From a bacterium (GTDB lineage: Bacteria > Zixibacteria > MSB-5A5 > WJJR01): 64,000 nt of DNA. Positions 4,949 through 53,407 of this stretch are shown piece after piece (positions within the stretch are counted from its first letter, which is position 1; every line of letters starts with the position of its first letter). The stretch spans positions 10,059-74,058 of the forward strand of contig JAKAKI010000034.1 of assembly GCA_021813505.1 (NCBI GenBank), written 5' to 3'. The notes under the pieces were generated by a model. It had not been told where the DNA came from. It was given only the letters and a program-made list of their open reading frames with translations, and searched no databases. A program made the translations under genes and the position numbers.

Positions 4949-5806
4949 TTAACCCTTGGTTGCGCGGCAGGCTTCTTCGAGCTCAGTGAATCCCGGGCGG
5001 ACGTCGCTATAGATGGAACGGCGGGCGAACTCAACGGCGATCGCCGCGACGCAGCCCTTGTGGAATGCCAACAGGACCTGCTTCAGTGCAACAAAGTAAC
5101 GGCCATTCTCTTCCGCCTTGCTGGCCAGGTTGGCGGCCAGCGGCTGAACGAAGCCGTACGACAACAGCACGCCCAGGAATGTCCCCACCAGCGCCGCGCC
5201 CACTTTGTGCCCGATTTCCTCGGCAGGACCGTCGATCGCGCCCATCGTGATGACAATGCCCAGTACGGCCGCCACGATCCCCAGACCGGGCAGAGAATCA
5301 CCGGTGGTCTGCAGCACCTTCGAGGGTTTGGTGGCTTCCTCGTGGTGCGTTTCGAGGTCGACGTCCATTAACGCGTCCAAATCGTGCGCCTGGACCCCCG
5401 ATCCGGAGATGATCAGCCGCATCGTGTCGGCCAGGAAACTCACCGCGTGATGGTTTTTCGCGAAGCTGGGATACTTGCCGATGATCGCACTGCCTTCGGG
5501 CCGTTCGATGTGACCCTCCAGGGCCATAATTCCATCGCGGCGCGCCACGGTCAGCAGTTCGTACAGCATCGAAAGCAGATCGAGATAGTCTTTTTTTGTG
5601 GGGCCGATCTTGGGCAGACTCGCCAGTTGCGAGATCATCGTCTTGAGTGTCTTGGGGCCGCTGCCAATGATCAGTGCCCCCCCTGCCGCGCCTCCGATGA
5701 TGAGGAATTCGGCGGGCTGGAAGAGGACGAGGAGCTTGCCGCCCTCCATAAGATAGCCACCGAGAATGGCGGCAATGACAATGCCGATCCCTGCAAATGC
5801 AATCAC
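4949..5806 (-). CDS. motA: Flagellar motor stator protein MotA
   Basis: The 285-aa, 4-TM protein is collinear with E. coli MotA (GGYLMxGG, YQPAE, RLIISG, ETHEE, GDSLPxFGIVAAV, MVGTFLGxLLxYGF, PIAVEF motifs). Confidence 0.9.
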   Translation of the reverse strand: MIAFAGIGIVIAAILGGYLMEGGKLLVLFQPAEFLIIGGAAGGALIIGSGPKTLKTMISQLASLPKIGPTKKDYLDLLSMLYELLTVARRDGIMALEGHIERPEGSAIIGKYPSFAKNHHAVSFLADTMRLIISGSGVQAHDLDALMDVDLETHHEEATKPSKVLQTTGDSLPGLGIVAAVLGIVITMGAIDGPAEEIGHKVGAALVGTFLGVLLSYGFVQPLAANLASKAEENGRYFVALKQVLLAFHKGCVAAIAVEFARRSIYSDVRPGFTELEEACRATKG

Positions 5807-5925
5807 GCTCTTCCTCCCGTCCGGCCGAATGGCCGGACCCTATTGGAGTATCGTCAGTTAGTGGAAGTTCTGCAGCGGTGCAGGAGATTCGGCTGCGCCC
5901 GATTAGGTGGGCGGAGCCCATCACT

Positions 5926-6031
5926 GGGAGGGCGAGGCTCCCGCCGAGCCTTGTTACCGCGCAGATACCCTTATTAACGTAAGCCACAACACCCGCGCGG
6001 CAAAGAGGCTCGGCAGGACCCTCGCCCTCCC
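5926..6031. repeat. REP-like palindromic element, copy 1 (25-nt GC-rich inverted arms around a 56-nt spacer)
   Basis: Left arm gggagggcgaggctcccgccgagcc (5926-5950) pairs with ggctcggcaggaccctcgccctccc (6007-6031) at 23/25 positions. The spacer carries an inner ccgcgc/gcgcgg sub-palindrome. Near-identical arms recur at 48277-48346. Confidence 0.6.
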
Positions 6032-6090
6032 GGTGGCGGCGTACGCCTACACAATAACTCACTATGTCGAGTCGCCGGGGTGCGTTGCCC

Positions 6091-6852
6091 TCAATACTGG
6101 GATTCGGCCTGGGGGCCCAGGATGCGGATGAAGTTGCGAAACAACTCAAGCCCCGGCCACTGTTTGTGGCGAAGCTCTTGATGATCGGCGATCCAGCGAG
6201 GGATCAGGGGTATCGGAATCAGCCGGGGCGATTCACCGCTCAACTCCGCTGTCAGCCGGGCCAGCGGAACCGTCAACGGGAGCGGCATGGGGACCTTGTC
6301 GATGTCGTTGGCGATCGGATCGACGCAGAGTTCGGCGGGAGAGGTGACGTTGTATTCGCGGCATACGACCGGGCGATGCAGATGGATGCTGCACAGTTCA
6401 TCCACCAGAAACGGGCACGCCATCCCGAGGAGAAAATACTTGCGCGCGATCGGGAGCACAGCTTCGTCGACATATTCTGGATTGAGCAGTTCATCGATCA
6501 TCTGCAATCGCTCGAGTTCGCCGGCGATTCTACTCATGCGTGACATAACTTCATCGCGGTGAGCCGGCTCAAATGAATCGATCAGATCCTGCAGGTAGAA
6601 TGCTTCCGGCGGCGAAATCGCGACCATGTGGTGGCAGCAGGCTGCGCACCGGGCACGGCAGGAAACGTGGCGTCCTGCGTGCACTTCGCGCCGATGGGCC
6701 TGGGCCACCAGAACGTTGGTCAATTCAAAAGCGGTCGGCACGAGTTCCGCCAGCCGCATCGGGCCCGTGTCGACCTCGACGCGGCCCCGCATGACGCCTT
6801 CCGGTGTCTGGAGCGTGACGGACATTAGTGCTACGCGACTGTCGCCCGTCAT
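6091..6852 (-). CDS. YkgJ/UPF0153-family Cys-cluster (putative Fe-S or zinc-binding) protein
   Basis: The cysteine cluster CRARCAACCHH (C-x3-C-x2-CC) is close to the CxxCxxCC signature of the YkgJ / flagellin N-methylase (FliB) family. The start overlaps the upstream gene by 4 bp. Confidence 0.45.
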   Translation of the reverse strand: MTGDSRVALMSVTLQTPEGVMRGRVEVDTGPMRLAELVPTAFELTNVLVAQAHRREVHAGRHVSCRARCAACCHHMVAISPPEAFYLQDLIDSFEPAHRDEVMSRMSRIAGELERLQMIDELLNPEYVDEAVLPIARKYFLLGMACPFLVDELCSIHLHRPVVCREYNVTSPAELCVDPIANDIDKVPMPLPLTVPLARLTAELSGESPRLIPIPLIPRWIADHQELRHKQWPGLELFRNFIRILGPQAESQY

Positions 6853-7613
6853 TTGGTGAATACCGGATCAAGATGCAATTGGAAGATGTGGCCGCAGTAC
6901 CGGCACCGGATTCGTTCGCCCTCCCGCCCCTGCCGCACACCCAGGCTCCGATTGCAGCCATCACAGCCGATCCATGACACGGGTTGTGAGTAGTCCACCG
7001 GTCCGCTGGGGCGGTCGAGATACTCCACCTGATGGGCAGCGTAGATGCCGGCTGCAATCGGCTGCCAGGTTGAACCTCCACCCATTGCGGCGTCGCGTTT
7101 GTGAATCGCCTCGCGATGGCTGGCGTCGCCGTGGGCGATCACATACTGGCTGACGGTTTCCCAGAAGGGAAGGCTGTCCGTCTGATCGAGGCAGGTAATC
7201 CAAAGATCGACGGCCGCATGAGGGTCACGAGAAACAACTGCCCGGCCCACGTTGAAGATTACCTCGGGATCGGAGTCCCCTCTGAACCGGCCCGCGAGCC
7301 ATTCCCGGTCACCGGGATGGAACTGAATCAGATATCCTGCTGCTTTGCCGCGTGCGGGAGCCTCAGGATTCTCCAGGGTGCGGCGGCCAAGTTCACGGAG
7401 CCTGTCATCGGCAGACCCACGGGTGAACAGCATCCAGATCATGTAACACACCGAGGGTGATGTTTCTCGCGTCAGCACATCAAGGAGCGTTCCGATCCCA
7501 TCGCTGACTTTCAGGCGCTTGCCGACAACCTCTGTCAGCAGGGCGCGTAAGCAATCGAGTTTTTCCTTTTCGTCCTTTGCATCAAGCAGGGACTCGAATT
7601 TAACCTGGCTCAC
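6849..7613 (-). CDS. Hypothetical HEAT-like repeat protein with C-terminal zinc ribbon; candidate Rhs immunity protein
   Basis: It has a 4-bp start/stop overlap with the Rhs gene. Composition is balanced and non-low-complexity. The C-terminal CDGC...CRYCGH is a zinc ribbon. The internal repeats are HEAT_2-like (DDRLRELGRR..., DSDPEVIFNVGRAV...). The immunity role is inferred from position only. Confidence 0.4.
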   Translation of the reverse strand: MSQVKFESLLDAKDEKEKLDCLRALLTEVVGKRLKVSDGIGTLLDVLTRETSPSVCYMIWMLFTRGSADDRLRELGRRTLENPEAPARGKAAGYLIQFHPGDREWLAGRFRGDSDPEVIFNVGRAVVSRDPHAAVDLWITCLDQTDSLPFWETVSQYVIAHGDASHREAIHKRDAAMGGGSTWQPIAAGIYAAHQVEYLDRPSGPVDYSQPVSWIGCDGCNRSLGVRQGREGERIRCRYCGHIFQLHLDPVFTK

Positions 7614-10600
7614 GAAGATCCCCCCGAACTACCGCCACCGCCGGAAGGATCGAGCGGCTCGAGCCTTTCGGGATTCGGGTGATCCGGTAGCGTGCTGGGC
7701 CGCTCGGGCGCACCATCGGACATGATGGGCGTATGCAGCGGCCTTTGAAAATCGTCCATTCGTCGTGTGTACTCCGGTGAATCGCGCGTTTCGCCCGGCC
7801 CGGGCTGCGGCGCAGGACCGGCGGGAGTGCCATCATCGTGGTAGTGCGTCGTCCCGGGGACACGGCTTCGTGGTTCGAGGAAAGATTGCTCATTAGGAGT
7901 CATGCCTGTCCCACCCGGTCCGAGCGGCGTACTTTCCGGTGTCGCTCCCGAATCGAAACTGCTCCGATGAACATGTGGCGGGAATCCAGCCGGCCCCATC
8001 GATTCCGCGTGCCCCCATGGATCGACGCGAACTGCGTGAGTCGTCCCATCGGCATCCCGCATCATCCAGATGCCGCTAACCTCTTCTTGATTCCCCGTCC
8101 GAGGGCTTCGGTCTGTTCCGGGGGGACGCACTTCCACATACCCTGCCGCCCGGAGCATCTCGGTGATCTCGGCATAGGTTCGATAGGCCATCGACGGGAG
8201 TTCTTGCACCGGCATCCCCGGACGCACCTCCGGCTCCTCTTCGCTGGGATGCGGGGTCGTACTGGAGCAATCATCGCTGAGCCCGGATGGATCGATCTTG
8301 CGCCAGGGATTGGACGGGTACGCGTAGATGTTGATTCCGCCTTTGAGCAGAATCGGATCGGGCTCCAGAAACCGGGCTGTTGCCGGGTCGTAGTAGCGAA
8401 ACCCGTTGTATCGCCAGCCGGTTTCACGGTCATAATATTGCCCGGGAGATCGCAGGTTGAACTCGATGCCCTGGCTCTCATCCACAATCCCTTCGCCGTA
8501 TGGCTCAGGCTCCCAGGACCAAACACAGCGCCCATCGCGATTCGTGATCGCACGGGGCAGACCGATGTCATCGGAATGAATGTAGTAGGGAACAACAACG
8601 CCGTCGCCACCCACAGCTCCCGTTTGTTCAACAAACATGAACGGCGCATTCGCGCCGTCGAGATAGAGATAGATCCTACGGTGATTGTCGTCAGAGATCT
8701 CACGCAGCAGGCGGTGCTCGTCGTACTGGAACGTGACTCTCTTGCCGTCGCACTCCTTCCACTTCCTTCGTCCCAGCGCATCGTAGCCAAAGGTGACAAT
8801 ACGGCCCTGTTCTGTCCTGACCTTCAGGAGCCGGCCGTTTCCATCATAGGAGACTTCACGGACGCCCTGCGATGTTGCGATCTGCTTCGGACAACCCCTC
8901 GAATCATAGGTGTACGTGCGGTCGTCGACACGGTTCAGGCGATTCCCAATACCGAATTCCCACGCCTTCCCGGGATTGACCACGATGTTTTCCGCCGCAT
9001 CATAACGGAAGTCGGCACGACGGCTTTCCGAACTCTGGGCGCTGATGATGCGATCCAGATCGTCGTACCCATAGGAATTGTGCGAACTGCGAAGCCAGTC
9101 GGTCTCGCGCAGACGGTTGCCGTCGGCATCGCACTTGTACTGCCGGAGAACCAACCGCTTCTGACGGTTCTCCAGCCGCTCCACCCGGTGCCACTCCAGG
9201 ACGCCCTGTGGCGTCATCGACTTAACTTCCACCCACCCGTTGGGGAAAACGTGTGAGCGCAAGTCGCCCCCCGCACCGCTGATTTCATGCTTATCACCGA
9301 GCGGATCGATCAACTCGATCGTGGCGCCCGTCGCACTGTAGGCGAACTTCGCGCTGAAGCCCTCTGACCATTCAATCTTCTCGACGTTGCCGTTAGCGCT
9401 GCGATGAAATGCCACCGACCCTTCGCGACATTCGATCATTGCCGGCTTGCCGTGACGGTCGTACTTGGTCTTGATGTCATCGCCGTCGTTCGTGGCCTTG
9501 ACAACACGCCCACAGGCATCTGGCACGAACTCGGCGGTGCAGGCCCCCGCCGGCTCTTCTTTGATCTTGAACCTTCCCGGCCCGTATTCGCGACGGACAA
9601 GTATTGCCCCATCGCCGTCATACACCTCTTTGACATTCCAATCGGCGTCGAAAATACGGCGGGAAAAAGGCGTCTGATCGAGGGTGATCACCGCCGGCCG
9701 GTCTTTGTGATCCCGTTCAAATTCGGTCTGATGCCCTGCACCATCGACGACCTTCACCATCTCATCGGCTCGATTGAATGAATAGCGGATGGTCTGGCCG
9801 TTGGGAGCACGCGTGGCGACACACTTGTTCCACGATGAGTATTCGTAGCGCCGGGTGCGGCCCCGTGGATCGGTATCCGATGTGAGATTCCCCTCGGCGT
9901 CATACTGCCGCTTCGATTGCGATCCATCCGGGAAGGTGATCTCAAGGAGACGGCCCAAATCGTCGAAGCGATACCGCATCCGACGGTCCCCCTCCCGCCG
10001 TTCAATGATCCTCCCCCAATCGTCATAGCGGAAGGCGGTGAGAAGCGCACCGGGGTCATTGAAGATGGCGATGAGCCGGCCCCCGTCATCGTAGCGGAGA
10101 TTGGTCGCCTTGCCACTCGGATCGATCTTTCGGGAGAGACGATTTCGGGAATCGTATTCGTAGAGCGTCACATCGCCGGACGGGCTCATCTCGCCGTCCA
10201 GGTTCCCCCGATGATCGTAGGACCATTTCGTCGTGTTTCCGTCCGGGTCAGTCTCTTCGATCTTCAGGTTCAGGTCGTTGTAGGCGCGCTTGGTGGTTCC
10301 GCCAAAGGGGTTGGTCTCTTCAACGACATTCCCGAAATCATCATACTTGTACTTCCTGGTGCTCCCCGTCTCGTCGACTTCGGCGACTTTATTGCCGGCT
10401 TTGTCGTACTCGAAGACCTGGACCCCGCCATATGGATCCATGCGCGAGGTGATCAGTCCACGCTCGTCGTAACGATAGATAATCTTGCCGCCGGTGGGCG
10501 AATGCAGAATGGTAATGCTCGCCGGAGGCAGATACTCTACCGTACCGGCATACAGGTCATCGTCACCGCGCGACTTGATGCAGCGGCCGTCACGGTCATA

Positions 10601-12019
10601 GGCATAATGGAACGAGTATCCGTTGCGGTCGGTCTTGCGCGTCATTTGGTGCTTGTCATCGTAGGTGTACTTGTACCGCCTGCCCACCGCATCAATGACC
10701 GCCACCATGTCGCCGTGGTCGTCGTATTCGTAGGCCACCAGCGGCCGGAGCTTGCCGTCACTGCAGGCCAGCGCGAGGCGGGTGATGCGGCCGTCGGTGT
10801 GCGACTCGACTTTGATTCTCTGCCCGGTGGAATGTACGATCTCGTGCAGCCGTCCTTTGGGGTCGTAGCGGAATCCGATCGCCTCACCGGCGCGGTTCGA
10901 GAGGCGTGCGATCCACGCCTGGTCTGATTTCGGTAGTCGCACGAACTGCGCGGTCATACCGTCGATCCCGCTTACGGTGAATTGAGTCGCGGACTGTCTC
11001 GTCAGCGTGAGTTTTTCGAACGGCAGAAATTCAGACCCGCCATCCTTCTCGATGACCGGGAAGACAATCGACCGATTCTGTTCGTTGTGATAGACGATTG
11101 TCGCATGATGGAATTCCAGCCAGCGCTGATACTGGTGGCTCCAGTTCCAACCCAGCGGACCATCCGTCCCCAGAGTGTTGGCATAATACCGCTTCCAGGA
11201 AAGCTGAAGAGGCCCACCGATTTCGAAATCTGTCTTGTCCTCGAAGTTCGAGCCGGAGACGAGATCAATTGGCTCGAGTCCCAGCCGGCAGCGATTGCGG
11301 TCAATGAACCTGCCGGCCGCCTTCGATCCGGCATAGCCGGCGGCTGCCGTGATCGCGTTGGTGACGAATGCCTCGACCAGTTGCGCAAAGGTCATCCCAA
11401 CCTGGACGTGTGAAAACGCGATCACTGTGGCATTGGGAACGATCGGAATCTCGGAGCAGGACGCGCCTCCCAGGGGAACTCCCAAGGCCATTGATCCGCC
11501 ATTGACCGACACGGTCGGCGAGCCGATGGCGGTGTTCCCTTCGGCGCCAGGCAAAGGGATCGGCGGAATAAGCATCTGCGCCCATGTCTGCCACATCGTG
11601 AACGGCTGGAAGGCACCGGTGATGCCATCCCACACCGCTTTCGAGGACGAGACCTGGGGATCGGTTAACGACGATGCGATTCCTTTGACCACACCGATCA
11701 TGATATTGGCTGCGAGAGTGAAGAGGGTCACGAAGCCGACGGTGATGAGATTAGTGATGTACCAGACTTTGAAGGTGACCTTCGGAATATCGACCCACGT
11801 TCCCTGGGGAATGTGGATCGAGTACCCTTTGGCGCCGGAGCAGCACGCGGGACTGCCGTTGATCATCACATTGGACATCGGGAACTTCGGCGACGTCCAG
11901 AGCATGAGCACGCCGACAAACGGATGCGGATTGAGTGGAACGGGCGGAATCGCGGTCGAATGCGCATCAATCCCGATCAGCATCGTGTTGCCGGTCGTGC
12001 ATGCTGGGAAAAGCGGCAT
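7610..12019 (-). CDS. rhs: T6SS effector: N-terminal PAAR-like (DUF4150) domain, TM helices, Rhs/YD-repeat cage and a C-terminal variable region
   Basis: There are many YD repeats (RYDDGGRL, YDAEGNL, YEYDxxxR...). The Rhs core ends with GQYYDRETGWRYNGFRYYDPATARFLEPDPI...NIYAYPSNPWRKIDPSGL. The N-terminus MLIGIDAHSTAIPPVPL...VMINGSPACCSG is PAAR-like, followed by hydrophobic helices. The gene lies immediately downstream of vgrG and DUF2169. Confidence 0.9.
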   Translation of the reverse strand: MPLFPACTTGNTMLIGIDAHSTAIPPVPLNPHPFVGVLMLWTSPKFPMSNVMINGSPACCSGAKGYSIHIPQGTWVDIPKVTFKVWYITNLITVGFVTLFTLAANIMIGVVKGIASSLTDPQVSSSKAVWDGITGAFQPFTMWQTWAQMLIPPIPLPGAEGNTAIGSPTVSVNGGSMALGVPLGGASCSEIPIVPNATVIAFSHVQVGMTFAQLVEAFVTNAITAAAGYAGSKAAGRFIDRNRCRLGLEPIDLVSGSNFEDKTDFEIGGPLQLSWKRYYANTLGTDGPLGWNWSHQYQRWLEFHHATIVYHNEQNRSIVFPVIEKDGGSEFLPFEKLTLTRQSATQFTVSGIDGMTAQFVRLPKSDQAWIARLSNRAGEAIGFRYDPKGRLHEIVHSTGQRIKVESHTDGRITRLALACSDGKLRPLVAYEYDDHGDMVAVIDAVGRRYKYTYDDKHQMTRKTDRNGYSFHYAYDRDGRCIKSRGDDDLYAGTVEYLPPASITILHSPTGGKIIYRYDERGLITSRMDPYGGVQVFEYDKAGNKVAEVDETGSTRKYKYDDFGNVVEETNPFGGTTKRAYNDLNLKIEETDPDGNTTKWSYDHRGNLDGEMSPSGDVTLYEYDSRNRLSRKIDPSGKATNLRYDDGGRLIAIFNDPGALLTAFRYDDWGRIIERREGDRRMRYRFDDLGRLLEITFPDGSQSKRQYDAEGNLTSDTDPRGRTRRYEYSSWNKCVATRAPNGQTIRYSFNRADEMVKVVDGAGHQTEFERDHKDRPAVITLDQTPFSRRIFDADWNVKEVYDGDGAILVRREYGPGRFKIKEEPAGACTAEFVPDACGRVVKATNDGDDIKTKYDRHGKPAMIECREGSVAFHRSANGNVEKIEWSEGFSAKFAYSATGATIELIDPLGDKHEISGAGGDLRSHVFPNGWVEVKSMTPQGVLEWHRVERLENRQKRLVLRQYKCDADGNRLRETDWLRSSHNSYGYDDLDRIISAQSSESRRADFRYDAAENIVVNPGKAWEFGIGNRLNRVDDRTYTYDSRGCPKQIATSQGVREVSYDGNGRLLKVRTEQGRIVTFGYDALGRRKWKECDGKRVTFQYDEHRLLREISDDNHRRIYLYLDGANAPFMFVEQTGAVGGDGVVVPYYIHSDDIGLPRAITNRDGRCVWSWEPEPYGEGIVDESQGIEFNLRSPGQYYDRETGWRYNGFRYYDPATARFLEPDPILLKGGINIYAYPSNPWRKIDPSGLSDDCSSTTPHPSEEEPEVRPGMPVQELPSMAYRTYAEITEMLRAAGYVEVRPPGTDRSPRTGNQEEVSGIWMMRDADGTTHAVRVDPWGHAESMGPAGFPPHVHRSSFDSGATPESTPLGPGGTGMTPNEQSFLEPRSRVPGTTHYHDDGTPAGPAPQPGPGETRDSPEYTRRMDDFQRPLHTPIMSDGAPERPSTLPDHPNPERLEPLDPSGGGGSSGGSS

Positions 12020-12022
12020 AAC

Positions 12023-13135
12023 TCAGGCATCCCCGACGATGACGTCCATGCGGGTCATATCCACGAAATCGGGACGGCCATCGTAGATTACGGCCCCGCG
12101 CCACACCAAATCGACAACCATCTGTTCGCCGAAGATCGCCACCGTATGGAGAACCACCGGCGGCTTTTCGGGTCCCTTGCCCCAGTCGATGGAAATGACG
12201 GGCGTCATTCCCGGGAGATTAAACGACAGTTCTCCCGACGGTTCGAGATTGCGCAACTGGATTGGCTCGTCGCCTTTGAGGTACGGGACTGCCAGACCTA
12301 CAGAGGCTCCGTTGAAGAGCCGAAAATCCAGCATCGGCAATTTCAATTTCTTCTGCGCTTCGACTTGGTCCTTCTGAACAACACCCAATGTCATCTCGTG
12401 CAGCTCTTCGTACATCGGCATGTACGCCGGCAGCACTCCAGCGAAACTCGCGCGTGGGTACCAGCCAAGCCCGAACCAGCTCAGCCCGGCGGGCATCGGT
12501 TGCTTGTGCCACTTCTCGATCGACCCGGTTATCAGACGCTGAGGAGTCAGCAGGTCCTGCGGGTCCTCGAAATTGGGAAGTGCCAGACCATCGACGGCTT
12601 CTTTGGTGTTCCTCACCACAAAGCCCGTCCCGATGAAGTTCCGGGCATACGCCATCGGCACTTTGGGATCGGCGTGAATGTCCACGCCGCCATAGGCGCG
12701 TTCATAGCGCAGATCGATGGATTGAAAGGGCGCGGGATTGGTGAAGATCGGTATGCCGGCACTGTTGAATGCACAGCGCCGTTCGCCGAACGCCGCGATT
12801 GTCTTCTGATGATTGCCGACTCGCAGCGACGCGATACACTGTGTGGCGGGTTTGCCCGCGGGAGCGTACACCTTGCCGGTAAACACGACATCGGTGAGTG
12901 GCTTATACGGGTACAAATCGGTTTCGATCTCAATTGAACCGATCATGGGATCGTTCTTCTCGTAGTAGCGCGTGGCCTGGGTCAACGGCGATTGCTCTGG
13001 CACCGGCTTGCAGACCGCCTTGGGTTCAATCTTGAATCGGCGTTTGGCGAGAACGGAGAAGATCGTCTTGCCATCCGGGTCAGAGCCGGGGAGCATCACG
13101 AATGCGTAGATATCGTCAGGTTTGCTTGCCGCCAT
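12023..13135 (-). CDS. DUF2169-family T6SS effector adaptor/chaperone
   Basis: A ~370-aa protein between vgrG and a PAAR-like effector, the position occupied by DUF2169 adaptors such as Atu3641 in the Agrobacterium vgrG2-tde2 module. The sequence is ...YERAYGGVD.../...LSWFGLGWYPRASF.... Confidence 0.75.
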   Translation of the reverse strand: MAASKPDDIYAFVMLPGSDPDGKTIFSVLAKRRFKIEPKAVCKPVPEQSPLTQATRYYEKNDPMIGSIEIETDLYPYKPLTDVVFTGKVYAPAGKPATQCIASLRVGNHQKTIAAFGERRCAFNSAGIPIFTNPAPFQSIDLRYERAYGGVDIHADPKVPMAYARNFIGTGFVVRNTKEAVDGLALPNFEDPQDLLTPQRLITGSIEKWHKQPMPAGLSWFGLGWYPRASFAGVLPAYMPMYEELHEMTLGVVQKDQVEAQKKLKLPMLDFRLFNGASVGLAVPYLKGDEPIQLRNLEPSGELSFNLPGMTPVISIDWGKGPEKPPVVLHTVAIFGEQMVVDLVWRGAVIYDGRPDFVDMTRMDVIVGDA

Positions 13136-13167
13136 TTGGCTGATCCTCTGCTGGTGAAGACTGCCGA

Positions 13168-15339
13168 TTATGGATTCAGCAGAATCATCCCGCCTTTAAT
13201 TGTGTTGGAGGCCTGCGCGGTTGATGAGACCATGGCACCCGAGGTATCGTTGGCGGTGGTGGCCTTCGACTGAATAGTCTGACCCTCGATCTTTACACCT
13301 GCGGTACTGATCGTGATCGTGCCCCCGGCGCCCTTGATCTCAACCGTTCCGTCGAGCTTCATAGTGAGTTCGCTGCCACCGCATTTGACGTGAAACTTGT
13401 CGGATTGAACCGTGATATCGTAGGGGCCCTTGATATTGTCCGTCTTGGTTCCCGTCAGCACGTTGAGCGCTTCATTCCCGGTGTTGACGTTGACGGTACG
13501 GTTGCCCGTGAGAATGTTGAGTTCGTCGTTACCGGTGTTGACGTTCACGGTCCGGTTGCCTGTCAGGACATTGTGCTCGTCATTGCCGGTGTTGACGTTG
13601 ATAGTGCGATTCCCGGTGTGAACCGTGACCTTCTCGTTTCCATCCTGGATGTCCTCGGTACGATCTCCCTTGATCGTAATTGTCTCTTTGCCGTTGACCG
13701 TTTCCGTGCGGTCGTTGGTCACCGTGGTCGTTTCGTCATGTGTAACCGTCTTGGTGCGGTCGTGGCCGATCGAGAGCGACTCGTCGTGGCCCGTGGATTG
13801 GTTCTTGTCGTTGACGGTTGTGATCGTCAGGTTCTTCTGGGCATGCTGGTAGATCTCCTCGGAACCTTTCTTGTCCTCGAATCGGTATTCGTTGAAACCA
13901 CCGTGGCCCTTGGTGGAATCCGACTTGATCGTGCTCTTGGTCTTTTCCTGATCCAGCGGGTAGGGCGGCATGTTGTCGCCATTGTAGATGCGCCCGACGA
14001 TGATCGGCCGGTCGGGATCCCCTTCGAGAAAATCTACGATGACTTCGTGGCCGATCCGAGGAATCCACATCGCTCCCCAACTGGCACCCGCCCAGAGCTG
14101 GGAAACACGAATCCAGCAGGATGATTTTTCATTGCGCTGTCCTTCGCGATCCCACGGGAACTGCACTTTGACGCGGCCGTATTTGTCGACGTAAATCTCC
14201 TCACCGGACGGCCCGGTCACGACAGCGGTCTGTGTACCCTCAACCACCGGCTTGGTCGTCTTTCGCACAGGACGGTATGGCGTGTTCGAGGGAATGCACT
14301 GGAAACGATTGTCATAGGTGAACCGGCCGCTGGCATCATCCTGCCCCAGTGGCTGGGTGCCGACATGCCGCACCGAGATCAGCAGATATTCCTGGTTGAA
14401 CGAATTGCGCGTGTAGTCGGCGAGCGTGAATTTGTACCCCGGCACGAGCCGGCGGCAAACGCTCTGCCCTTCACCCAGCAGCCGTTTTGCCTGGGATGAT
14501 TCCAGACGTATCCGGGTGAGCTCGGCGCCGGTCCCCTCGTCCATGTAGAGTCCGGGAAACTCGTAGACTTCGAGTGCGGGATCGCGGTCCGCCGCCTGGT
14601 TCTTGGTCAGGTCGAGTGTCGGCCGCTCGAAGTTGTAGTCGCGCAGGACGGACGTGCCGGACTTGATCTGCTGCGAATAGCGGAAGTCGTAGATAAATTC
14701 CTCGGCTTCGACCGCTCCCGACGGATCGCGGAAGACGACATCACTGGCGCCGTCGATGGGGACATAGACATCGCTCGAATCGGCCATCACCAGGACTTCT
14801 TTGCCTTCCTGATGTTCGAAGAAGTAGAAGATCCCCTCCTCTTCGAGAAGCCGGGAGATGAAGTTCCAGTCACTCTCGCGGTACTGCACACAGTAATCGC
14901 GCTTCACATAGTTTGTCCGCTGCAGGGCAAACCGGAAATAGTCGGATTGGATTTCTGCGTCGGTCAGTACCTGTTCGACGATCTCCTTGACAGTCTTTTC
15001 CTGAAAGATCCGGCTCTTGGAGCGCTGGGTGAGCAGCCACACCCGGGGCACGAATTCGGCGTAATACGGAGTGAACGTCTCACCGGCGACCCCTTGCTCG
15101 AACCGGCTGACAATGCCGTAGATGGATCGCGTACCGTCCTCGTAGTTGATGTCCAGTTGTGCGGGGATTCCGACGATGGCATCCAGATCGATTTCGCCAT
15201 CACGCGCCGCGAGCTCGATTTTGAAACTGAACAGCTCGCTCATCCCTTCCGTGCCGTTGACACGCAGGACGCGCAACTCATCGGAATAACCGTCGGACTC
15301 GAACGTGAAGATCGATTCATCGGAAAGCAGGCTAGGCAT
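13168..15339 (-). CDS. vgrG: T6SS spike protein VgrG (TssI)
   Basis: The N-terminal gp27-like region is followed by a gp5-like region (...VSQLWAGASWGAMWIPRIGHEVIVDFLEGDPDRPIIVGRIYNGDNMPPY...). The C-terminal beta-helix has tandem TGNRTVNVNTGNDExNxL repeats. There is no C-terminal effector extension. Confidence 0.95.
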   Translation of the reverse strand: MPSLLSDESIFTFESDGYSDELRVLRVNGTEGMSELFSFKIELAARDGEIDLDAIVGIPAQLDINYEDGTRSIYGIVSRFEQGVAGETFTPYYAEFVPRVWLLTQRSKSRIFQEKTVKEIVEQVLTDAEIQSDYFRFALQRTNYVKRDYCVQYRESDWNFISRLLEEEGIFYFFEHQEGKEVLVMADSSDVYVPIDGASDVVFRDPSGAVEAEEFIYDFRYSQQIKSGTSVLRDYNFERPTLDLTKNQAADRDPALEVYEFPGLYMDEGTGAELTRIRLESSQAKRLLGEGQSVCRRLVPGYKFTLADYTRNSFNQEYLLISVRHVGTQPLGQDDASGRFTYDNRFQCIPSNTPYRPVRKTTKPVVEGTQTAVVTGPSGEEIYVDKYGRVKVQFPWDREGQRNEKSSCWIRVSQLWAGASWGAMWIPRIGHEVIVDFLEGDPDRPIIVGRIYNGDNMPPYPLDQEKTKSTIKSDSTKGHGGFNEYRFEDKKGSEEIYQHAQKNLTITTVNDKNQSTGHDESLSIGHDRTKTVTHDETTTVTNDRTETVNGKETITIKGDRTEDIQDGNEKVTVHTGNRTINVNTGNDEHNVLTGNRTVNVNTGNDELNILTGNRTVNVNTGNEALNVLTGTKTDNIKGPYDITVQSDKFHVKCGGSELTMKLDGTVEIKGAGGTITISTAGVKIEGQTIQSKATTANDTSGAMVSSTAQASNTIKGGMILLNP
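13447..13608 (-). repeat. In-frame 3 x 54-nt tandem repeat encoding the VgrG beta-helix (TGNRTxNVNTGNDExNxL x3)
   Basis: Three consecutive 54-nt units share ...ggtgttgacgtt.... This is a coding repeat, not a CRISPR array. Confidence 0.7.
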
Positions 15340-35521: not shown

Positions 35522-36019
35522 TTAGGTTTGCCGGGCGCTTTCCTTGCGCCGGCGAACGAAGAAGTCCCTCATCAGCGCGGCTGCTTCCTCGGCAAGGACG
35601 CCGGCGACGACATCGATGCGATGGTTGAGGCGGGGGTCTGTCGCGATGTGGAAAAGTGACGAACATCCCCCGAACTTGGGATCGGGTGTCCCATACACGA
35701 TCCGGTCAAGCCGTGCCAGCACCGCTGCTCCGGAGCACATGACACATGGCTCGACAGTTGTATACAGTGTGCCGCCAATCAGACGCCACGACTCGAAGTG
35801 TTCGGCCGCAGCGCCGATCGCGAGAATCTCGGCGTGGGCGGTCGGATCCCCCAGACGCTCGGTCTGGTTGTGTCCGCGTCCAACCACAATACGGTCGTCT
35901 TTGACGATGACGGAGCCAATTGGCACTTCTCCCTCATCGAAGGCCACCGCGGCTTCGTTCAACGCCTGCCGCATGAAATACTCGGCGCGTTCAAAGTCCA
36001 AAGGCAGGATCGGTTCCAT
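35522..36019 (-). CDS. tadA: tRNA-specific adenosine deaminase TadA
   Basis: The CDA-fold zinc motifs HAEILAI and PCVMCSGA are present. The protein is 165 aa. Confidence 0.85.
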   Translation of the reverse strand: MEPILPLDFERAEYFMRQALNEAAVAFDEGEVPIGSVIVKDDRIVVGRGHNQTERLGDPTAHAEILAIGAAAEHFESWRLIGGTLYTTVEPCVMCSGAAVLARLDRIVYGTPDPKFGGCSSLFHIATDPRLNHRIDVVAGVLAEEAAALMRDFFVRRRKESARQT

Positions 36020-38176: not shown

Positions 38177-39559
38177 TTATTTGTTGCGGTCGAACGTCCC
38201 CTGGTTCACCTGGGCTTCCCATTTGGGATCGCGGCGTTCACCGCGAGCCGTCGAATGAACCATATTGTATTCGCCGTAACCACTCTCGTCGATGAATAGG
38301 AAATAGACCTGGCCTTGGCCGGTCAAATTGTCGTAGAACCACATTTCCGCCGGCGAGCCTTCCGGAGTGAAGGGGTACCGCTCAATTGTGTTCGGCGGGC
38401 CATACACGATGTAAACCCGCCCCATGTCGGTGCGCCAGCCATCGGTGCGATTCTGGTAACCGATCGAGAATCGTTCGTTGGCGTAGTTCATCCGGCGCAT
38501 GTGCTCGTCTTTGAATTCGTTCTCCGTCGTCCCGGTGCTCGGATCACGATCCTTCCAGAATTGCACCCAGAATGCCTTCTTCCCGGTATTGTTGAGGCGC
38601 TCGAACGTCTGCGATTGTTCGGGCGTGATAATATAGGCAAAAATATCACGCATGCGCTGGACATCGGAAGCGCTCAGCGAATCACCCATGCTCTGGGCGA
38701 CCACCTGGAATCTCTTTTTCGCGCGCGCTGTCTGGCCCGTCGCCGGATCGGTCACATCGATGCGCAGACAGTACAGGCCAGCCGGCAATTCCCGGACGTC
38801 GATGCCAGAGGCCAGCACGGCGCTGGTCCCCGCCTTGGTCAGCTTCTGCACTTTCACAACTTTCCCGGCCACGCTGTCCGGGGGCGCCACACTCACGGCG
38901 ATGTCGTACGAGTTGTCGCGGGACGGATCGAACGCCAGATTATAGACCTCGGTGTAGAAGAACAGGCGCGGGCGGTCCGCTCCCAGCACCCCACGGCAGT
39001 CAGGATAAACCTTGTACCGGTTCTTCACCAGCACGTCCCCGAGGGTGGCACCCGTGTCGGGCGGCTGCGATATGATGTCATACCCGAATTCGACATCGGA
39101 CATGTGCAATGCCGGCCGCGAGAAATCGGGGATGGCCAGCGGCAACAGCGCTTCTGAGGCCGCCTTGCTAACCATATCAGTAACCACCAGCCGGGCATTG
39201 TACGAACCGGGCGGCAGAATGAGTGCCCGCGCGAAGAAGACGATAAAGTTCGAATCTGTCAGCGCTGACGAATCGGAGGCAATCGACCGAAAGGCGCCAC
39301 CGACCGAATCCACCGGCGCGCCCGATGTATCACTCACGTGAACCCAGGCGTGGACTTCCGCCTGGTAGAGGCTGTCGAATGGATGGAATCTGAAATCGAC
39401 GCGCTTCAGCTCGAGGTAGAATTCCACATAGCTCTCGCGGGCATTGACCGCCTTGCGGTAAGCCGCATAGTCGGCACGGAAGCGCAACGGTCCGGTTCCC
39501 TCCACGGCTTGTGTGCCGGGCGCTCCCAAAAGCAGCGCCATGACCGAAAGCAGAAGCAT
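38177..39559 (-). CDS. GWxTD-domain secreted protein, paralog 1
   Basis: The C-terminal ...GYQNRTDGWRTDMGRVYIVYGPPNTIERY... matches the GWxTD domain signature. The signal peptide MLLLSVMALLLGAPGTQA follows the internal start. The track ORF starts 27 codons upstream. Confidence 0.6.
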   Translation of the reverse strand: MLLLSVMALLLGAPGTQAVEGTGPLRFRADYAAYRKAVNARESYVEFYLELKRVDFRFHPFDSLYQAEVHAWVHVSDTSGAPVDSVGGAFRSIASDSSALTDSNFIVFFARALILPPGSYNARLVVTDMVSKAASEALLPLAIPDFSRPALHMSDVEFGYDIISQPPDTGATLGDVLVKNRYKVYPDCRGVLGADRPRLFFYTEVYNLAFDPSRDNSYDIAVSVAPPDSVAGKVVKVQKLTKAGTSAVLASGIDVRELPAGLYCLRIDVTDPATGQTARAKKRFQVVAQSMGDSLSASDVQRMRDIFAYIITPEQSQTFERLNNTGKKAFWVQFWKDRDPSTGTTENEFKDEHMRRMNYANERFSIGYQNRTDGWRTDMGRVYIVYGPPNTIERYPFTPEGSPAEMWFYDNLTGQGQVYFLFIDESGYGEYNMVHSTARGERRDPKWEAQVNQGTFDRNK

Positions 39560-39649
39560 GCGCGCCACCGGGGCCGGGCACCACTTGGCGCGCCGGCCAC
39601 GGACGCCAATCACGTGCCTGATACACTCGTAAGTTCGCACGGAATCCTC

Positions 39650-40975
39650 TCAGCGAATGATGCCATCGTACGGATACTGCAAATCGTACTCGCCATTCCC
39701 CTTGGTATCGATAAACGTAAACTGGCGGCGCTGGGCGTAATAATGCCAAATTTCGTACGGTTTACTGTCCAGTTCGAATGGGTAACGCTCCACGTCGTCG
39801 GGCTCGCCATAACGGATATAAACGGTCCCAAAGTCGGTGCGCCAGCCCGGCTGAAATGGATTCGTGAATTGCTGGTTGGCGAAGCGCACGCGCCGGTAGT
39901 ACTCCTCTTTCCATTCATTCGCATCGGATCCAGGGCTCGGATCCTTGGAACGCCAGAATCGGTCGAACGCCGCCTCGCGATCCGGGGCCGCGACCTTGCG
40001 GAGGGAATCCAGCTCCTGGCGCGACGCGATGTGGACCAGCATGTCCACGACGTCCTTCCAATTGTTGGCCACCATGGAGGCCAGTGACCAATCGATGAGA
40101 ATGCCGCAGGAGAACGGGGCACCGGCTTTGCGTCCGGCATGATCCAACGCCACCAGCTCCATGCGGGCGTCACCGGTTTCGAATCCCGGAATCGGTTTCT
40201 GATAGAATACCGGAATGATCTTAAGTGCGGTGTCGACTCGGATTGTATCGGTGAAGTAGTGGTGCCCGGCCTGCTGTATCAGCGTGATCACGACCGATGA
40301 CGCGGGGTGGTGCGCCGGCTGGTAGATTTCAAAATACAGCGACAACGGCTGATCGTTGCCGCCCAGGGATCTGGTGACATTGGGTACGAAGGCAGAAGTG
40401 TCCTTCTGGAAACGCGGGTCAGCAGGGGGGGCAACCCCGGGAATGACAAACTCCGGCCCGCCAATCACCCAGTCGGGGCCGGTTTGATCGTGAATATCCA
40501 CGGCCCGGTGGACGGTATGTGTGCCACCCGAGATGCGATCGTTGACCGTAACCACCAACTCGTACTGTCCCGGAACAACCCTGACAGCCAGGATATTGAT
40601 CAAGAACCCCGAGGTACGCCGGGTTTCATCGAACGTTTCGAGAACGTAGTTCTCGCGGTTGCTGGCCGTGGCCGCCTGTTCGTCCCCACGCCCCTTGAGA
40701 ATCGCCGAGATTTCGTACGACGCGGCGTACTGGTTCCCCTTTTTGACATAGGAGAGATGCGGATTGGTGATCCGGTAGTAGATTTCCAGACGCACGCTGT
40801 CGCCCGGAATCCGGAACGCGGCCCAGTCCAGGTCGAACACCGGTTCGCCCGGCTCAGGGAGTCCGGAAAATTCAGTTTGAGCCAAGAGATTGCCAGTCGG
40901 GAAAAACAGGATGGCCCAACAGATTACGCCCCCGAGCACTGGCACCACGCGTCGCAAATTAACCAGGCAGCGCAC
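39650..40975 (-). CDS. GWxTD-domain secreted protein, paralog 2
   Basis: C-terminal ...NPFQPGWRTDFGTVYIRYGEPDDVERYPFE.... N-terminal signal peptide. The protein is collinear with paralog 1. Confidence 0.6.
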   Translation of the reverse strand: MRCLVNLRRVVPVLGGVICWAILFFPTGNLLAQTEFSGLPEPGEPVFDLDWAAFRIPGDSVRLEIYYRITNPHLSYVKKGNQYAASYEISAILKGRGDEQAATASNRENYVLETFDETRRTSGFLINILAVRVVPGQYELVVTVNDRISGGTHTVHRAVDIHDQTGPDWVIGGPEFVIPGVAPPADPRFQKDTSAFVPNVTRSLGGNDQPLSLYFEIYQPAHHPASSVVITLIQQAGHHYFTDTIRVDTALKIIPVFYQKPIPGFETGDARMELVALDHAGRKAGAPFSCGILIDWSLASMVANNWKDVVDMLVHIASRQELDSLRKVAAPDREAAFDRFWRSKDPSPGSDANEWKEEYYRRVRFANQQFTNPFQPGWRTDFGTVYIRYGEPDDVERYPFELDSKPYEIWHYYAQRRQFTFIDTKGNGEYDLQYPYDGIIR

Positions 40976-48276: not shown

Positions 48277-48346
48277 GGGAGGGCAAGGCTCCTGCCGAGC
48301 CTTTTCGCCGCGCGGAAACATGGCTCGGCAGGAGCCTCGCCCTCCC
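48277..48346. repeat. REP-like palindromic element, copy 2 (25-nt arms, 20-nt loop)
   Basis: gggagggcaaggctcctgccgagcc (48277-48301) pairs with ggctcggcaggagcctcgccctccc (48322-48346) with 1 mismatch. The loop ttttcgccgcgcggaaacat contains a cgccgcgcgg palindrome. The arms are >90% identical to copy 1 at 5926-6031. Confidence 0.6.
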
Positions 48347-53000: not shown

Positions 53001-53407
53001 TCCATCGCCTGCCGGATTGTCAGATCGATCAAATCCAGCGAGTACCCCTCCGGGTTGGCGCGCGCCCGATCCGCCAACTGCAGGGCGGCAATCAGGCGAT
53101 TCTTCAACTCCGGATTGCGATGTTCGACGGCCAGAGCCAGATGGGCATATTTGGGGGCACGCACGGTTGATTTGGCCACTGCCCATAGCACCAACCCCAG
53201 CGCCGACGCACCGAGGATCGAGACAATCGTGACGCGGACGGTCGTCGATGGAATCACCAGTGCCAGCGTCGCGGAGAGAACCACAAAGGCAATTCCCAAG
53301 GCCGCGAGCAGAAGACTCATCTGTGTCGCCCACTCGAGTGCGATCCAACGGCGGCGCATACTTCTGAGGCGGTCTATCAGTTGGCTGTAACCCGGCATCG
53401 GTGACAT
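50003..53407 (-). CDS. DUF4175-like large membrane-anchored protein (N-terminal double TM anchor, long Gln/Glu/Lys-rich coiled-coil C-terminal half)
   Basis: An 1134-aa protein with two N-terminal TM helices (WIALEWATQMSLLLAALGIAFVVL, VTIVSILGASALGLVLWAV). There is a beta-rich middle region. The C-terminal ~500 aa are low-complexity coiled coil (QEQIQQAQQKKLQSAELIQKMIEAQQ...). It pairs with the adjacent DUF4159 gene. Confidence 0.5.
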   Translation of the reverse strand: MSPMPGYSQLIDRLRSMRRRWIALEWATQMSLLLAALGIAFVVLSATLALVIPSTTVRVTIVSILGASALGLVLWAVAKSTVRAPKYAHLALAVEHRNPELKNRLIAALQLADRARANPEGYSLDLIDLTIRQAMEMCNGIDFAASLDRARVKRSARLAGIGLGSGLLLALLFPSLASRSWQAYSNPLTDYSASVPYDLSIEPGSVEAVKFDDFKIVARVTGASLPENATIHQRSAGGDWRILGPVPALAVTRDEGGAKGVSQAEFRHTISQIKYDFEYFVTAGERTSPTYKVTAVDRPVVTGLRLEIFPPKYTGIAPSVVDENDGTISAPVGTTVKFRVESNRPLSSASMAFSDGSSRALEIRSQSASTELTIDKNRSYHVTLLDASGRSNPHPIEYSITAIPDRAPTVEIVMPGHNMDLSDAMSVDLKIVAHDDYGFTKMVLHTRWLSEGRERAVRDFVIPGSALTGERLETGYFWDLANWGLLPEDVVHYYAEVWDNDQNPAPQNGSSKTFSVRLPSLDEQIAENEMARDEDVSALDRILEGERELNNKLEDLRREIAGQKEIDWNKQKGLEEVASQGQKLNKELDDIAQSMQEQIQQAQQKKLQSAELIQKMIEAQQLFNEVATDEMKEAMRKLQEAMKQLDPKEVQDALAKMDLSQEEMLKRLERTLAYLKKLQAEQKVDAFIKRVEQMLAQQDALNKEAGETPKDKLPDMAPSQEKLKSNFDKLAQDMMAAESMLAANQVAAPPKIQEFTQAAQKSPAPSQMKQTAQNMSEQNKDAAQQSGGQCSTSLKALLDEMKSFQQQMSSKMQAEMAKQLREALDKVLYVSDKQEELMDKTGQVDPTSLSLRDMAAEQEALRSSTEKLATQLAELGKKSTCLSNQMGQNLSGSASRMQSSAEALSQRQGPTAQSNQRESLFDLNQTAQQIADAMEKNSGQCKNPGSGSCDKPGGNGAMGKMQQLSQQQGRLNGQMPGSDQTGGSMSNEERQQMARLRAEQQAIQKGVSEVSKELGDRRDLPGRLDKLGEEMQKVISDLDQSKVTEETRDRQRRIYTRMLDFQRSMQKQDYKEERKAQFGDNMLRQSPGPLDAGRGLTDEEYERLLTRYQEEGYPKEYEETIKAYFRALVEARGK

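Follow-up and report, generated by a model that had tools for sequence, protein, structure and literature searches.

The window analysed here is a stretch of 64,000 nucleotides from contig JAKAKI010000034.1 of a bacterium of the Zixibacteria lineage (assembly GCA_021813505.1). This report concerns a cassette of five consecutive genes at positions 6091-15339 of its minus strand. According to the list of open reading frames (ORFs), they encode, in the order in which they are read, the spike protein VgrG, a DUF2169 protein, an Rhs effector, a 254-residue protein and a 253-residue protein (Table 1). The cassette is probably the effector-loading end of a type VI secretion system (T6SS) operon of the T6SS-i type, and would comprise a spike effector that joins a PAAR cone and a transmembrane (TM) helix to an Rhs cage, the DUF2169 chaperone of this effector, a toxin and an immunity protein.

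The genes clpV, tssG, tssF, hcp, tssC, tssB, tssA, tagF, tssM, tssL, tssK and tssJ lie upstream on the same strand and are contiguous with the cassette, as is a gene for the C-terminal domain of the T6SS FHA protein. This gene set is a complete T6SS-i operon. A family scan agrees with the original prediction, made from the sequence alone, that the cassette directly adjoins the structural genes. The ATG of the DUF2169 gene is separated from vgrG by 32 nt, which include an AGAGGA motif, and a gap of 3 nt is left between the DUF2169 stop codon and the ATG of the Rhs gene. The TGA of the Rhs gene overlaps the GTG start of the gene for the 254-residue protein in a GTGA sequence, and the TGA of the latter overlaps the ATG of the last gene in an ATGA sequence. 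The ORFs and their junctions bear out the predicted genes, their order, lengths and strand coordinates, and the translational coupling of the two downstream genes.

Table 1. Genes of the cassette and predicted parts of the effector, with positions in the window
Feature	Position	Strand	Evidence
VgrG spike, 723 residues	13168-15339	minus	TIGR03361, PF05954, PF04717, PF22178
DUF2169 (TvpA/Tap2-type) chaperone, 370 residues	12023-13135	minus	PF09937; PDB 8vth_A
PAAR/TM-Rhs effector, 1469 residues (stop included)	7610-12019	minus	domain matches; best solved relative 7q97 RhsA
Predicted PAAR cone, N-terminal part, residues 1-80	11780-12019	minus	conserved D18, H20, H32, P57-A58 'PAC' motif, H69
Predicted helical insert splitting the cone, residues 81-150	11570-11779	minus	TM-grade helix ~85-112 and Trp-rich amphipathic helix
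Predicted PAAR cone, C-terminal part, residues 151-210	11390-11569	minus	PPIPLPG motif, invariant S187-C188
Predicted linker helix from cone to Rhs, residues 211-248	11276-11389	minus	helix 211-241 in AlphaFold2 model; standalone homologues end here
DUF6531 and Rhs/YD-repeat cage	8279-11275	minus	PF20148, PF05593, TIGR03696
C-terminal toxin, residues 1248-1469, 222 residues	7613-8278	minus	conserved motifs, Pro/Gly-rich tail
Probable cognate immunity protein, 254 residues	6849-7613	minus	homologue downstream of toxin in related loci
CxxCxxCC (YkgJ-type) metal-binding protein, 253 residues	6091-6852	minus	PF03692

The predicted N-terminal cone and the DUF2169 protein

The N-terminal region of the effector had been labelled as a PAAR-like domain of the DUF4150 type. 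Neither PF13665 (DUF4150) nor PF05488 (PAAR) matches it at E<=10, whether residues 81-150 are kept or removed. The Pfam searches at this threshold covered residues 1-260, the insert-deleted construct and the family consensus, and gave at most sub-threshold matches to PAAR_motif. A match of residues 169-188 to Thiolase_C (E 0.13) was rejected as a local NGG..ALG..LG likeness, unrelated to the 'thiolase-like' TvpD of Class II systems. Relatives of the region were found as 10 clusters in a single-sequence search and as 635 matches at E<=1e-3 in a profile search. The best 120 of these 635 are all 255-284 residues long and none has a precomputed Pfam domain; a few relatives bear the JGI label 'uncharacterized Zn-binding protein involved in type VI secretion'.

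The structure of the region was predicted with AlphaFold2 from an alignment of 124 sequences (pLDDT 71, pTM 0.60). In the model, beta strands occupy residues 3-69, helices residues 83-119, 125-141 and 143-150, further beta strands residues 158-208 and a last helix residues 211-241. This layout makes the two beta-rich segments one complete PAAR cone and residues 81-150 an insertion. The predicted cone superposes on the canonical PAAR protein c1882 over 91 of 93 residues, with 24% identity. The conical beta fold of PAAR proteins is present in the model, so that the PAAR-like assignment holds for the predicted fold and its conserved residues and fails at the level of Pfam. Across the 124 sequences, no substitution occurs at H20, H69 or C188, and H32 is kept in at least 90%. 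Three histidines and one cysteine are the typical make-up of the PAAR zinc site, and their conservation suggests that the cone binds zinc. The linker helix, residues 211-248, corresponds to the C-terminal tail of the standalone protein in the split systems described below.

The insert interrupts the cone about 60% along the chain, after about 80 residues. A segment with a Kyte-Doolittle score above 1.6 over 19 residues is centred near residue 100 in all 124 members. The C-terminal helix is also hydrophobic in about half of them; the window protein falls below the threshold there. Several TM helices had been expected, and a single TM-grade helix was found, inside the cone domain. The TM region of prePAAR effectors cuts off no more than the first ~16 residues, with the AARxxDxxxH motif, from the rest of the cone, and their chaperone is of the Eag (DUF1795) family (PMC7773334). 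The AARxxDxxxH motif is absent from the effector of the window, the N-terminus of which reads MPLFPACTTGNTMLIGIDAH. The N-terminal consensus of the family, PAAKxxD...GxDxH, looks like the first PAAR motif, not separated here from the ~60 cone residues that follow it. Eag is absent between vgrG and the effector, where DUF2169 stands alone; DUF1795 was not searched for elsewhere in the window. The claim that one polypeptide carries the tip, a TM region and the Rhs cage is upheld in that a cone with a hydrophobic helix precedes the cage. The prePAAR-like region that was part of this claim has to be given up, as the insert lies inside the cone and the motif is missing.

The N-terminus could instead be a DUF4150/PIPY cone, and the locus a plain Class I Tvp system whose effector happens to be an Rhs protein. 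Surveys pair DUF2169 with DUF4150 and rarely with PAAR (PMC11883445), and the gene content is that of Class I, with no TvpB, TvpC or TvpD between vgrG and the effector. The conserved PPIPYPG of the family, which is PPIPLPG at residues 152-158 of the window protein, resembles the P(I/V)P(Y/F) hallmark of PIPY domains, and the motif region of one member, P0005, was aligned by HMMER to positions 19-61 of PF13665 (E 0.052). However, PF13665 is touched by only 2 of the 124 members (E 0.038-0.052; gathering score 31 bits), as compared with 16 members for PF05488 at E<=0.1. The best of the PF05488 matches reaches E 6.7e-5 and 23.5 bits, and all those inspected among the relatives lie below the gathering cut-off of 27 bits. 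Three histidines and one cysteine are conserved, whereas DUF4150/PIPY domains have been described as having neither the zinc site nor the PAAR motifs (Sachar et al., PMC11883445). An hhalign comparison of the family profile with one canonical PAAR (from locus L056) matched only 16 columns, in which 'MPAC' falls on the PAAR motif, and the PIPY-like motif is situated in the last third of the cone instead of the first. A DUF4150/PIPY cone at this locus appears distinctly improbable, and the DUF4150 label does not survive the missing PF13665 match, the conserved His3Cys set and the superposition of the model on canonical c1882. Judged by its sequences, the cone family is one that mixes features of the PAAR and PIPY cone types.

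VgrG matches TIGR03361 with E 1.5e-192 (640.8 bits against a cut-off of 186.35) as well as the three Pfam families given in Table 1. It consists of the gp27/gp5 core and C-terminal beta-helix repeats, and the domain scan found nothing beyond these parts and hence no C-terminal effector domain, as had been claimed. The 370-residue protein encoded next to it matches PF09937 (DUF2169) with E 4.1e-61 and 207.4 bits (cut-off 25) over profile positions 2-294 of 294, which settles the predicted family. It also matches 8vth_A, the only solved DUF2169 structure, at E 1.3e-9. A six-frame scan shows it to be the sole DUF2169 copy within the 64-kb window. DUF2169 counts among the three classic families of T6SS helpers. 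How it works was established, to our knowledge, only in 2025-2026, and for DUF4150/PIPY cones alone. The original prediction had treated the protein as an adaptor needed by a VgrG that lacks an effector domain. The literature describes instead a chaperone for the hydrophobic surface of the cone, for which contact with VgrG is not required (PMC11883445, PMC13373197).

Distribution and gene arrangement of the PAAR/TM family

A scan of one genome per species yielded 74 loci with the N-terminal PAAR/TM region. The closest relatives are in two metagenome-assembled genomes (MAGs) of Candidatus Zixiibacteriota, with 86% and 78% identity. Others belong to Gemmatimonadales, Planctomycetota (including Rhodopirellula baltica), Acidobacteriota, Rokubacteria, Burkholderiales (Variovorax), Desulfobacterota-type bacteria, Verrucomicrobiota, Fibrobacterota, Nitrospirales, Poribacteria, Myxococcota and further groups, so that the PAAR/TM module spans well over ten bacterial lineages. 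A contig labelled 'Patescibacteria group bacterium' (L009) carries a Zixibacteria-type PAAR/TM module with 81% identity and is probably mis-binned.

The dominant cassette, as derived from called and profiled ORFs, has the order VgrG, DUF2169a, DUF2169b, X, PAAR/TM, Rhs. The PAAR/TM protein is then a standalone protein of 255-270 residues, and the Rhs protein, of about 1150 residues, begins right at ..HPVDVASG... The protein called X is a conserved protein of ~125-150 residues with an N-terminal TM helix, encoded between DUF2169b and the standalone PAAR/TM gene in most split cassettes. It occurs in L001 (9577-9972) and about 44 other loci, such as L010 (9604-9981) and L026 (9585-9989). X belongs to no Pfam family, and neither the window nor any fused cassette contains it.

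The arrangements were counted in 55 loci, each with 4.5 kb or more of sequence upstream. The split arrangement, with separate PAAR/TM and Rhs proteins, was found in 44 loci, 41 of which have at least two DUF2169 genes and 30 of which have X. Culturable carriers of the split cassette include Variovorax rhizosphaerae, Variovorax humicola, Rhodopirellula baltica and Sphaerotilus sulfidivorans. PAAR/TM is fused to Rhs in 11 loci, six with one DUF2169 gene and five with none, and X is present in none of these. Of the 55 loci, 52 have VgrG upstream of PAAR/TM and 49 have one DUF2169 gene or more there. The Zixibacteria-like lineage of the window has one DUF2169 and the fused protein. An assembly or frameshift artefact as the source of the fusion is ruled out by the same fused ORF in four further independent assemblies (P0001, L005, L007 and L008).

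The single DUF2169 of the window was scored with profiles of the two paralogues from two-copy cassettes and gave 431.6 bits with profile a and 444.1 bits with profile b. True DUF2169a members score ~600 and ~440 bits with the two profiles, and true DUF2169b members ~440 and ~630. The nearly equal scores place the window protein outside that duplication.

In Bradymonadia/Myxococcota (L070-L079), the fused proteins are longer at the N-terminus by several hundred residues, and this extension matches the beta-helix part at the C-terminus of VgrG. Neither a DUF2169 gene nor a separate vgrG lies within 10 kb in several of these loci; the ORF starts are uncertain in this GC-rich DNA. In a Fibrobacterota MAG (L056, 10629-12255), the gene next after DUF2169 encodes a canonical PAAR protein with clear PAAR motifs (MGKPAARMGD...KKPAARVSD). 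This locus, too, departs from the published DUF2169-DUF4150 rule.

According to that rule, DUF2169 co-occurs with DUF4150 and 'rarely' adjoins PAAR, and 20% of the single-domain DUF2169 loci remained uncategorised (PMC11883445). A survey of 2020 found fewer than 5% of the DUF2169-linked PAARs fused to RHS (PMC7714669), and the three Tvp classes that have been defined all have DUF4150-type cones (PMC13373197). A literature search, limited to the papers that could be searched, found none that describes the VgrG/DUF2169/PAAR-TM/Rhs cassette. Tentatively, and with slightly more doubt than belief, we propose that the family is a class of DUF2169-dependent spike tips, absent from Pfam and present in many lineages, in which a PAAR cone with a probable zinc site contains an internal hairpin of membrane helices. 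Most lineages would need two specialised DUF2169 paralogues and the small membrane protein X, with the Rhs cage as a protein of its own. A few lineages (Zixibacteria-like and Myxococcota/Bradymonadia) would have the tip fused to Rhs and served by one DUF2169 or none.

The Rhs cage, the toxin and the candidate immunity protein

The cone and its linker are followed by DUF6531 (residues 249-320; PF20148 E 2.4e-19), by RHS repeats (PF05593 E 1.4e-72, eleven matched stretches) and by the Rhs-associated core at residues 1173-1247 (TIGR03696, 72.9 bits against a cut-off of 32.5). The closest relatives of the cage in the PDB are RhsA (7q97, E 1.8e-104), then 8h8a, 8qja, Tse15 and Tre23. The DPxGL autoproteolysis motif is present as DPSGL at residues 1243-1247 (window 8279-8293), as the original prediction had noted, in the context ...YYDPATARFLEPDPILLKGGINIYAYPSNPWRKIDPSGL with SDDC... 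following the expected cut.

The domain beyond DPSGL contains the motifs S-x-IWM, AVRVD-x2-GH and PH-x-H and then a Pro/Gly-rich tail. It has no match in Pfam, NCBIfam or the PDB. A word-indexed search of 5.8 billion clusters returned one match, a fragment, and an exhaustive HMMER search of 1.84 billion representatives returned two proteins only. The first (P0126) is an orthologous Rhs protein of 1462 residues, 67% identical. The second (P0127) has 354 residues, no Rhs match and hydrophobic stretches before the toxin domain, with 35% identity over ~95 residues. A toxin profile further detects the domain in L019/L124 and L129, and a metagenome scan with the toxin alignment gave no confirmed relative. 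The elements L..L...G(F/Y)V, S-x-IW, V-R-x-D-x2-GH and PH-x-H are kept across the relatives. The domain is a near-orphan, apparently of the alpha/beta type, with an invariant histidine cluster (GH...PHxH). From this cluster, a metal-dependent hydrolase acting on a cytoplasmic target may be guessed at, with low confidence. A HicA-like or RelE-like fold was considered and rejected, as hhalign gave probabilities of 1.6% and 0.2% against E. coli HicA and RelE. In L019 (7128-7130) and L124, an in-frame TGA lies between the Rhs core (..DILGLRGN*) and the toxin homologue. The two are independent assemblies, 99.99% identical overall, and have the same TGA. The gene may truly be split, the codon may be read through, or the sequence may be a pseudogene.

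In each of the five loci that carry the toxin (L005, L006, L019, L124 and L129), a homologue of the 254-residue protein starts 20-200 nt downstream of it. L019 and L124 represent one organism, which leaves four independent contexts of the toxin-immunity pair. The carriers differ. In L005 the carrier is a fused PAAR/TM-Rhs protein and the homologue is 58% identical to the 254-residue protein (E 4e-71), in L006 the carrier is the 354-residue protein with no Rhs match (29%, E 7e-9), and in L019/L124 it is a split PAAR/TM and Rhs pair (27.5%, E 1.5e-22). In L129 it is a canonical PAAR and Rhs protein with no DUF2169 nearby, and the homologue was detected by profile (E 6e-24). The immunity alignment was too divergent to serve as a scan query. 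The 254-residue protein appears to have HEAT-like helical repeats and a C-terminal CxxC...CxxC zinc ribbon. Its sequence contains no signal peptide and no TM segment, which points to a cytoplasmic target of the toxin and hence to the need to cross the inner membrane.

The collinear locus L007 of a Zixibacteria MAG keeps the genes for VgrG, DUF2169, PAAR/TM-Rhs and the CxxCxxCC protein, but its C-terminal domain is a different one, the 254-residue homologue is missing, and a different ORF of 133 residues is found. Nucleotide similarity between the window and L007 ends inside the Rhs gene near 10233 and starts again at 6837, the start of the CxxCxxCC gene. This swap, together with the way in which the pair tracks the toxin across carriers, indicates that toxin and immunity behave as a swappable cassette. 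The 254-residue protein is likely the cognate immunity protein, because it follows the toxin in every locus found. The pair matches no described family and, by its sequences, would represent a new candidate antibacterial activity.

An alternative would give the 254-residue protein an accessory part in loading, comparable to that of the armadillo/HEAT-type proteins in Class II systems, and would place immunity elsewhere, for example in the CxxCxxCC protein. Helical-repeat proteins of unknown role are present in DUF2169 synteny type A (PMC11883445), the L019 homologue has a weak HEAT_2 match, and members of the CxxCxxCC subfamily recur beside T6SS modules. However, the 254-residue protein goes with the toxin and not with the delivery module, in five of five loci and on three other carrier types, and it is missing from L007, which has the delivery and CxxCxxCC genes and another toxin. 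This makes an accessory role very improbable indeed, and the 254-residue protein is taken below as the likely immunity factor.

The CxxCxxCC protein matches PF03692 with E 2.5e-7. Its homologue in L007 is 78% identical despite the different toxin and immunity genes there, and the gene belongs to the conserved backbone outside the swapped cassette. A metagenome scan with the subfamily found 58 loci. More than 3.5 kb of sequence lies upstream in 22 of them. Of these 22 loci, 12 encode VgrG, DUF2169, Rhs or the immunity homologue upstream on the same strand, a count that is perhaps inflated by L119, L120 and L122, which are apparently identical in layout. In L019/L124 and L129, the CxxCxxCC gene is found ~2 kb past the immunity homologue. 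By these associations, the subfamily is linked repeatedly to T6SS effector modules and is not a random neighbour. In L129, a PKMT-like protein-lysine methyltransferase (6368-7945; PF10119, PF21782) is encoded between the immunity and CxxCxxCC homologues. PF03692 also includes the flagellin lysine methylase FliB, and the two neighbours in L129 may act together. On a Zixibacteria-like contig (L083, 1585-9800), the same position between vgrG and CxxCxxCC-motA-motB is occupied by a different module with no Rhs protein. It encodes VgrG, DUF2169, a 301-residue unknown protein, a 420-residue DUF2169, a 197-residue unknown protein and a 148-residue protein in which nothing but the zinc-ribbon end of the immunity family is left.

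On the 3' side of the CxxCxxCC gene, a spacer of 284 bp precedes motA/motB. Between the CxxCxxCC stop codon and motA lies an imperfect palindrome (window 5902-6055) with arms of 61 nt that are 77% complementary; as RNA it would fold with -110.9 kcal/mol (z -8.6). It has no U-tract and may be the operon end. The arm pair recurs 42 kb away, at 48277-48346, which identifies the palindrome as a dispersed REP/MITE-like element. The only Rfam match, to a miRNA precursor from plants, scored 35 bits (cut-off 137) and was dismissed as a generic long-hairpin match. Long ORFs at 5298-6149 on the minus strand and at 7838-9256, 9917-10927 and 11813-12937 on the plus strand overlap real genes or the palindromic spacer. 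The first of these, the only one scanned, has no Pfam match, and all four seem to arise merely from the ~60% G+C content. Elsewhere in the window, a MafB19/TadA-type deaminase of 165 residues (35522-36019) is probably, from its size and domains, a housekeeping tRNA deaminase. Two GWxTD-domain proteins (38177-40975) and a 1134-residue DUF4175 protein (50003-53407) are encoded outside the T6SS cluster.

Proposed mechanism and relation to known systems

In the proposed mechanism, residues 1-210 of the effector would cap the VgrG trimer as its cone. In the producer cell, DUF2169 would probably shield the hydrophobic insert and the PPIP(Y/L)PG surface until firing, in parallel to the action of DUF2169 on DUF4150/PIPY cones and of Eag on prePAAR effectors. 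The linker helix would join the cone to the DUF6531/Rhs cage, which would enclose the toxin. The Rhs-associated aspartyl autoprotease would cut after DPSGL (L1247) and release the toxin of 222 residues within the cage. Once the spike has been fired, the hydrophobic hairpin would insert into the inner membrane of the target cell and help the toxin to reach the cytoplasm. The cytoplasmic HEAT-like/zinc-ribbon protein of 254 residues would be the cognate immunity factor. Binding of the insert by DUF2169, capping of VgrG, autoproteolysis and membrane insertion are proposed by analogy with the systems described in PMC11883445, PMC13373197 and PMC7773334; zinc binding and the activity and compartment of the toxin are likewise proposals.

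The insert might alternatively be a docking handle, either for DUF2169 or for attachment of the Rhs cage or plug to the cone, in which case the toxin would enter by some other route. A single TM-grade helix would suit such a role, and published models emphasise the shielding of hydrophobic cone surfaces rather than translocation. Moreover, PAAR/TM and Rhs are separate proteins in most lineages and would have to be held together non-covalently; these lineages have a second DUF2169 and X, which suggests assembly functions of the module. The helix is, however, kept in 124 of 124 members, including fused forms that have no separate Rhs protein to dock. The immunity candidate, with no signal peptide or TM segment, indicates a cytoplasmic target and a crossing of the inner membrane, a step in which the N-terminal TM domains of prePAAR effectors have been implicated (PMC7773334). 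A pure docking function is on balance unlikely, and insertion of the hairpin into the target membrane is the preferred reading.

Several observations weigh against the account given above. The PAAR assignment rests on one medium-confidence AlphaFold2 model together with conserved residues: no sequence model recognises the cone, PDB searches with the single sequence or the 124-sequence profile gave nothing relevant, and Foldseek returned nothing for the cone. The metal site H20/H32/H69/C188 is putative and read from conservation. The insert contains a single TM-grade helix, its second helix being Trp-rich and amphipathic. In the DUF2169 protein of Vibrio parahaemolyticus, an aromatic 'thumb' of F209, W213 and F225 touches the PIPY prolines of the cone. 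In a HMMER alignment to 8vth_A, which is unreliable in this loop, the triad corresponds to V/Q/L in the window protein, and the binding mode of DUF2169 may differ from the published one. Some T6SS Rhs proteins cleave themselves at an N-terminal PVxxxxGE motif; the window protein (EPIDLVSGS) has a serine at the position of the glutamate, and N-terminal processing of the Rhs protein may not occur.

If the proposed class exists, DUF2169 would be a chaperone of transmembrane segments analogous to Eag, the published rule that DUF2169 goes with DUF4150 and not with PAAR would be incomplete, and the 'split PAAR' would have arisen at least twice, at different positions of the fold. The locus and its relatives suggest that DUF2169 also serves a PAAR-type cone with a membrane helix, which would link two lines of research so far kept apart, the Eag/prePAAR transmembrane effectors and the DUF2169/PIPY effectors. 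The contrast between fused cassettes with one DUF2169 and split cassettes with two DUF2169 and X would provide a handle on the roles of the second chaperone and of X. Surveys that look for PAAR or DUF4150 beside DUF2169 will miss the family, because no relative among the matches listed had a precomputed Pfam domain, and the family may explain part of the 'uncategorised' 20% of DUF2169 loci (PMC11883445). Besides the spike tip, the locus contributes a near-orphan family of toxin and immunity proteins and a subfamily of CxxCxxCC proteins with links to T6SS effector modules.

Among the known systems, the Class I Tvp system of Agrobacterium tumefaciens (VgrG2-Tap2(Atu3641)-Tde2-Tdi2) shares the gene order vgrG, DUF2169, cone-domain effector and immunity, and likewise has no TvpB, TvpC or TvpD between vgrG and the effector. 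The parallel drawn in the original prediction is sound for the gene order and the true DUF2169, but does not extend to the cone type. By sequence, the window cone is not DUF4150/PIPY and has a His3Cys set, a PAAR-type motif and a helical/TM insert of 70 residues; its cargo is an Rhs cage, and most of its relatives use two DUF2169 paralogues and a small membrane protein. With these DUF2169 systems, the locus also shares a genuine PF09937 protein and a hydrophobic, proline-rich surface motif on the cone. The DUF2169 protein VP1398 and PIPY effector VP1415 of V. parahaemolyticus have been grouped with the Class II systems of the Pseudomonas aeruginosa type (PMC13373197).

The prePAAR/Eag systems (Pseudomonas protegens RhsA-EagR1, 7q97; Serratia marcescens Rhs1-EagR1; P. 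aeruginosa Tse6-EagT6) combine, as here, PAAR, hydrophobic helices, Rhs cage and toxin in one polypeptide. Their PAAR fold is also split by membrane-type helices that need a cytoplasmic chaperone, and the Rhs core of 7q97 is homologous. In the window, in contrast, the split occurs after ~80 residues and not after 16, AARxxDxxxH is lacking, and the adjacent chaperone is DUF2169 instead of DUF1795/Eag; DUF2169 clients have been described as lacking predicted N-terminal TM domains (PMC7773334). From the orphan PAARs (E. coli c1882, 4JIW; V. cholerae VCA0105; T4 gp5.4), the window cone differs in being too divergent for PF05488 and in having a helical insert, a linker helix and an associated chaperone, which canonical PAARs do not need. 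Finally, in the polymorphic Rhs toxins (Zhang et al. 2012, PMC3482391) the toxin starts right after DPxGL, as it does here, and toxin-immunity pairs are swapped, as in the closest relative of the window, with the same toxin on other carriers; the toxin and immunity proteins of the window, unlike those, match no described family.

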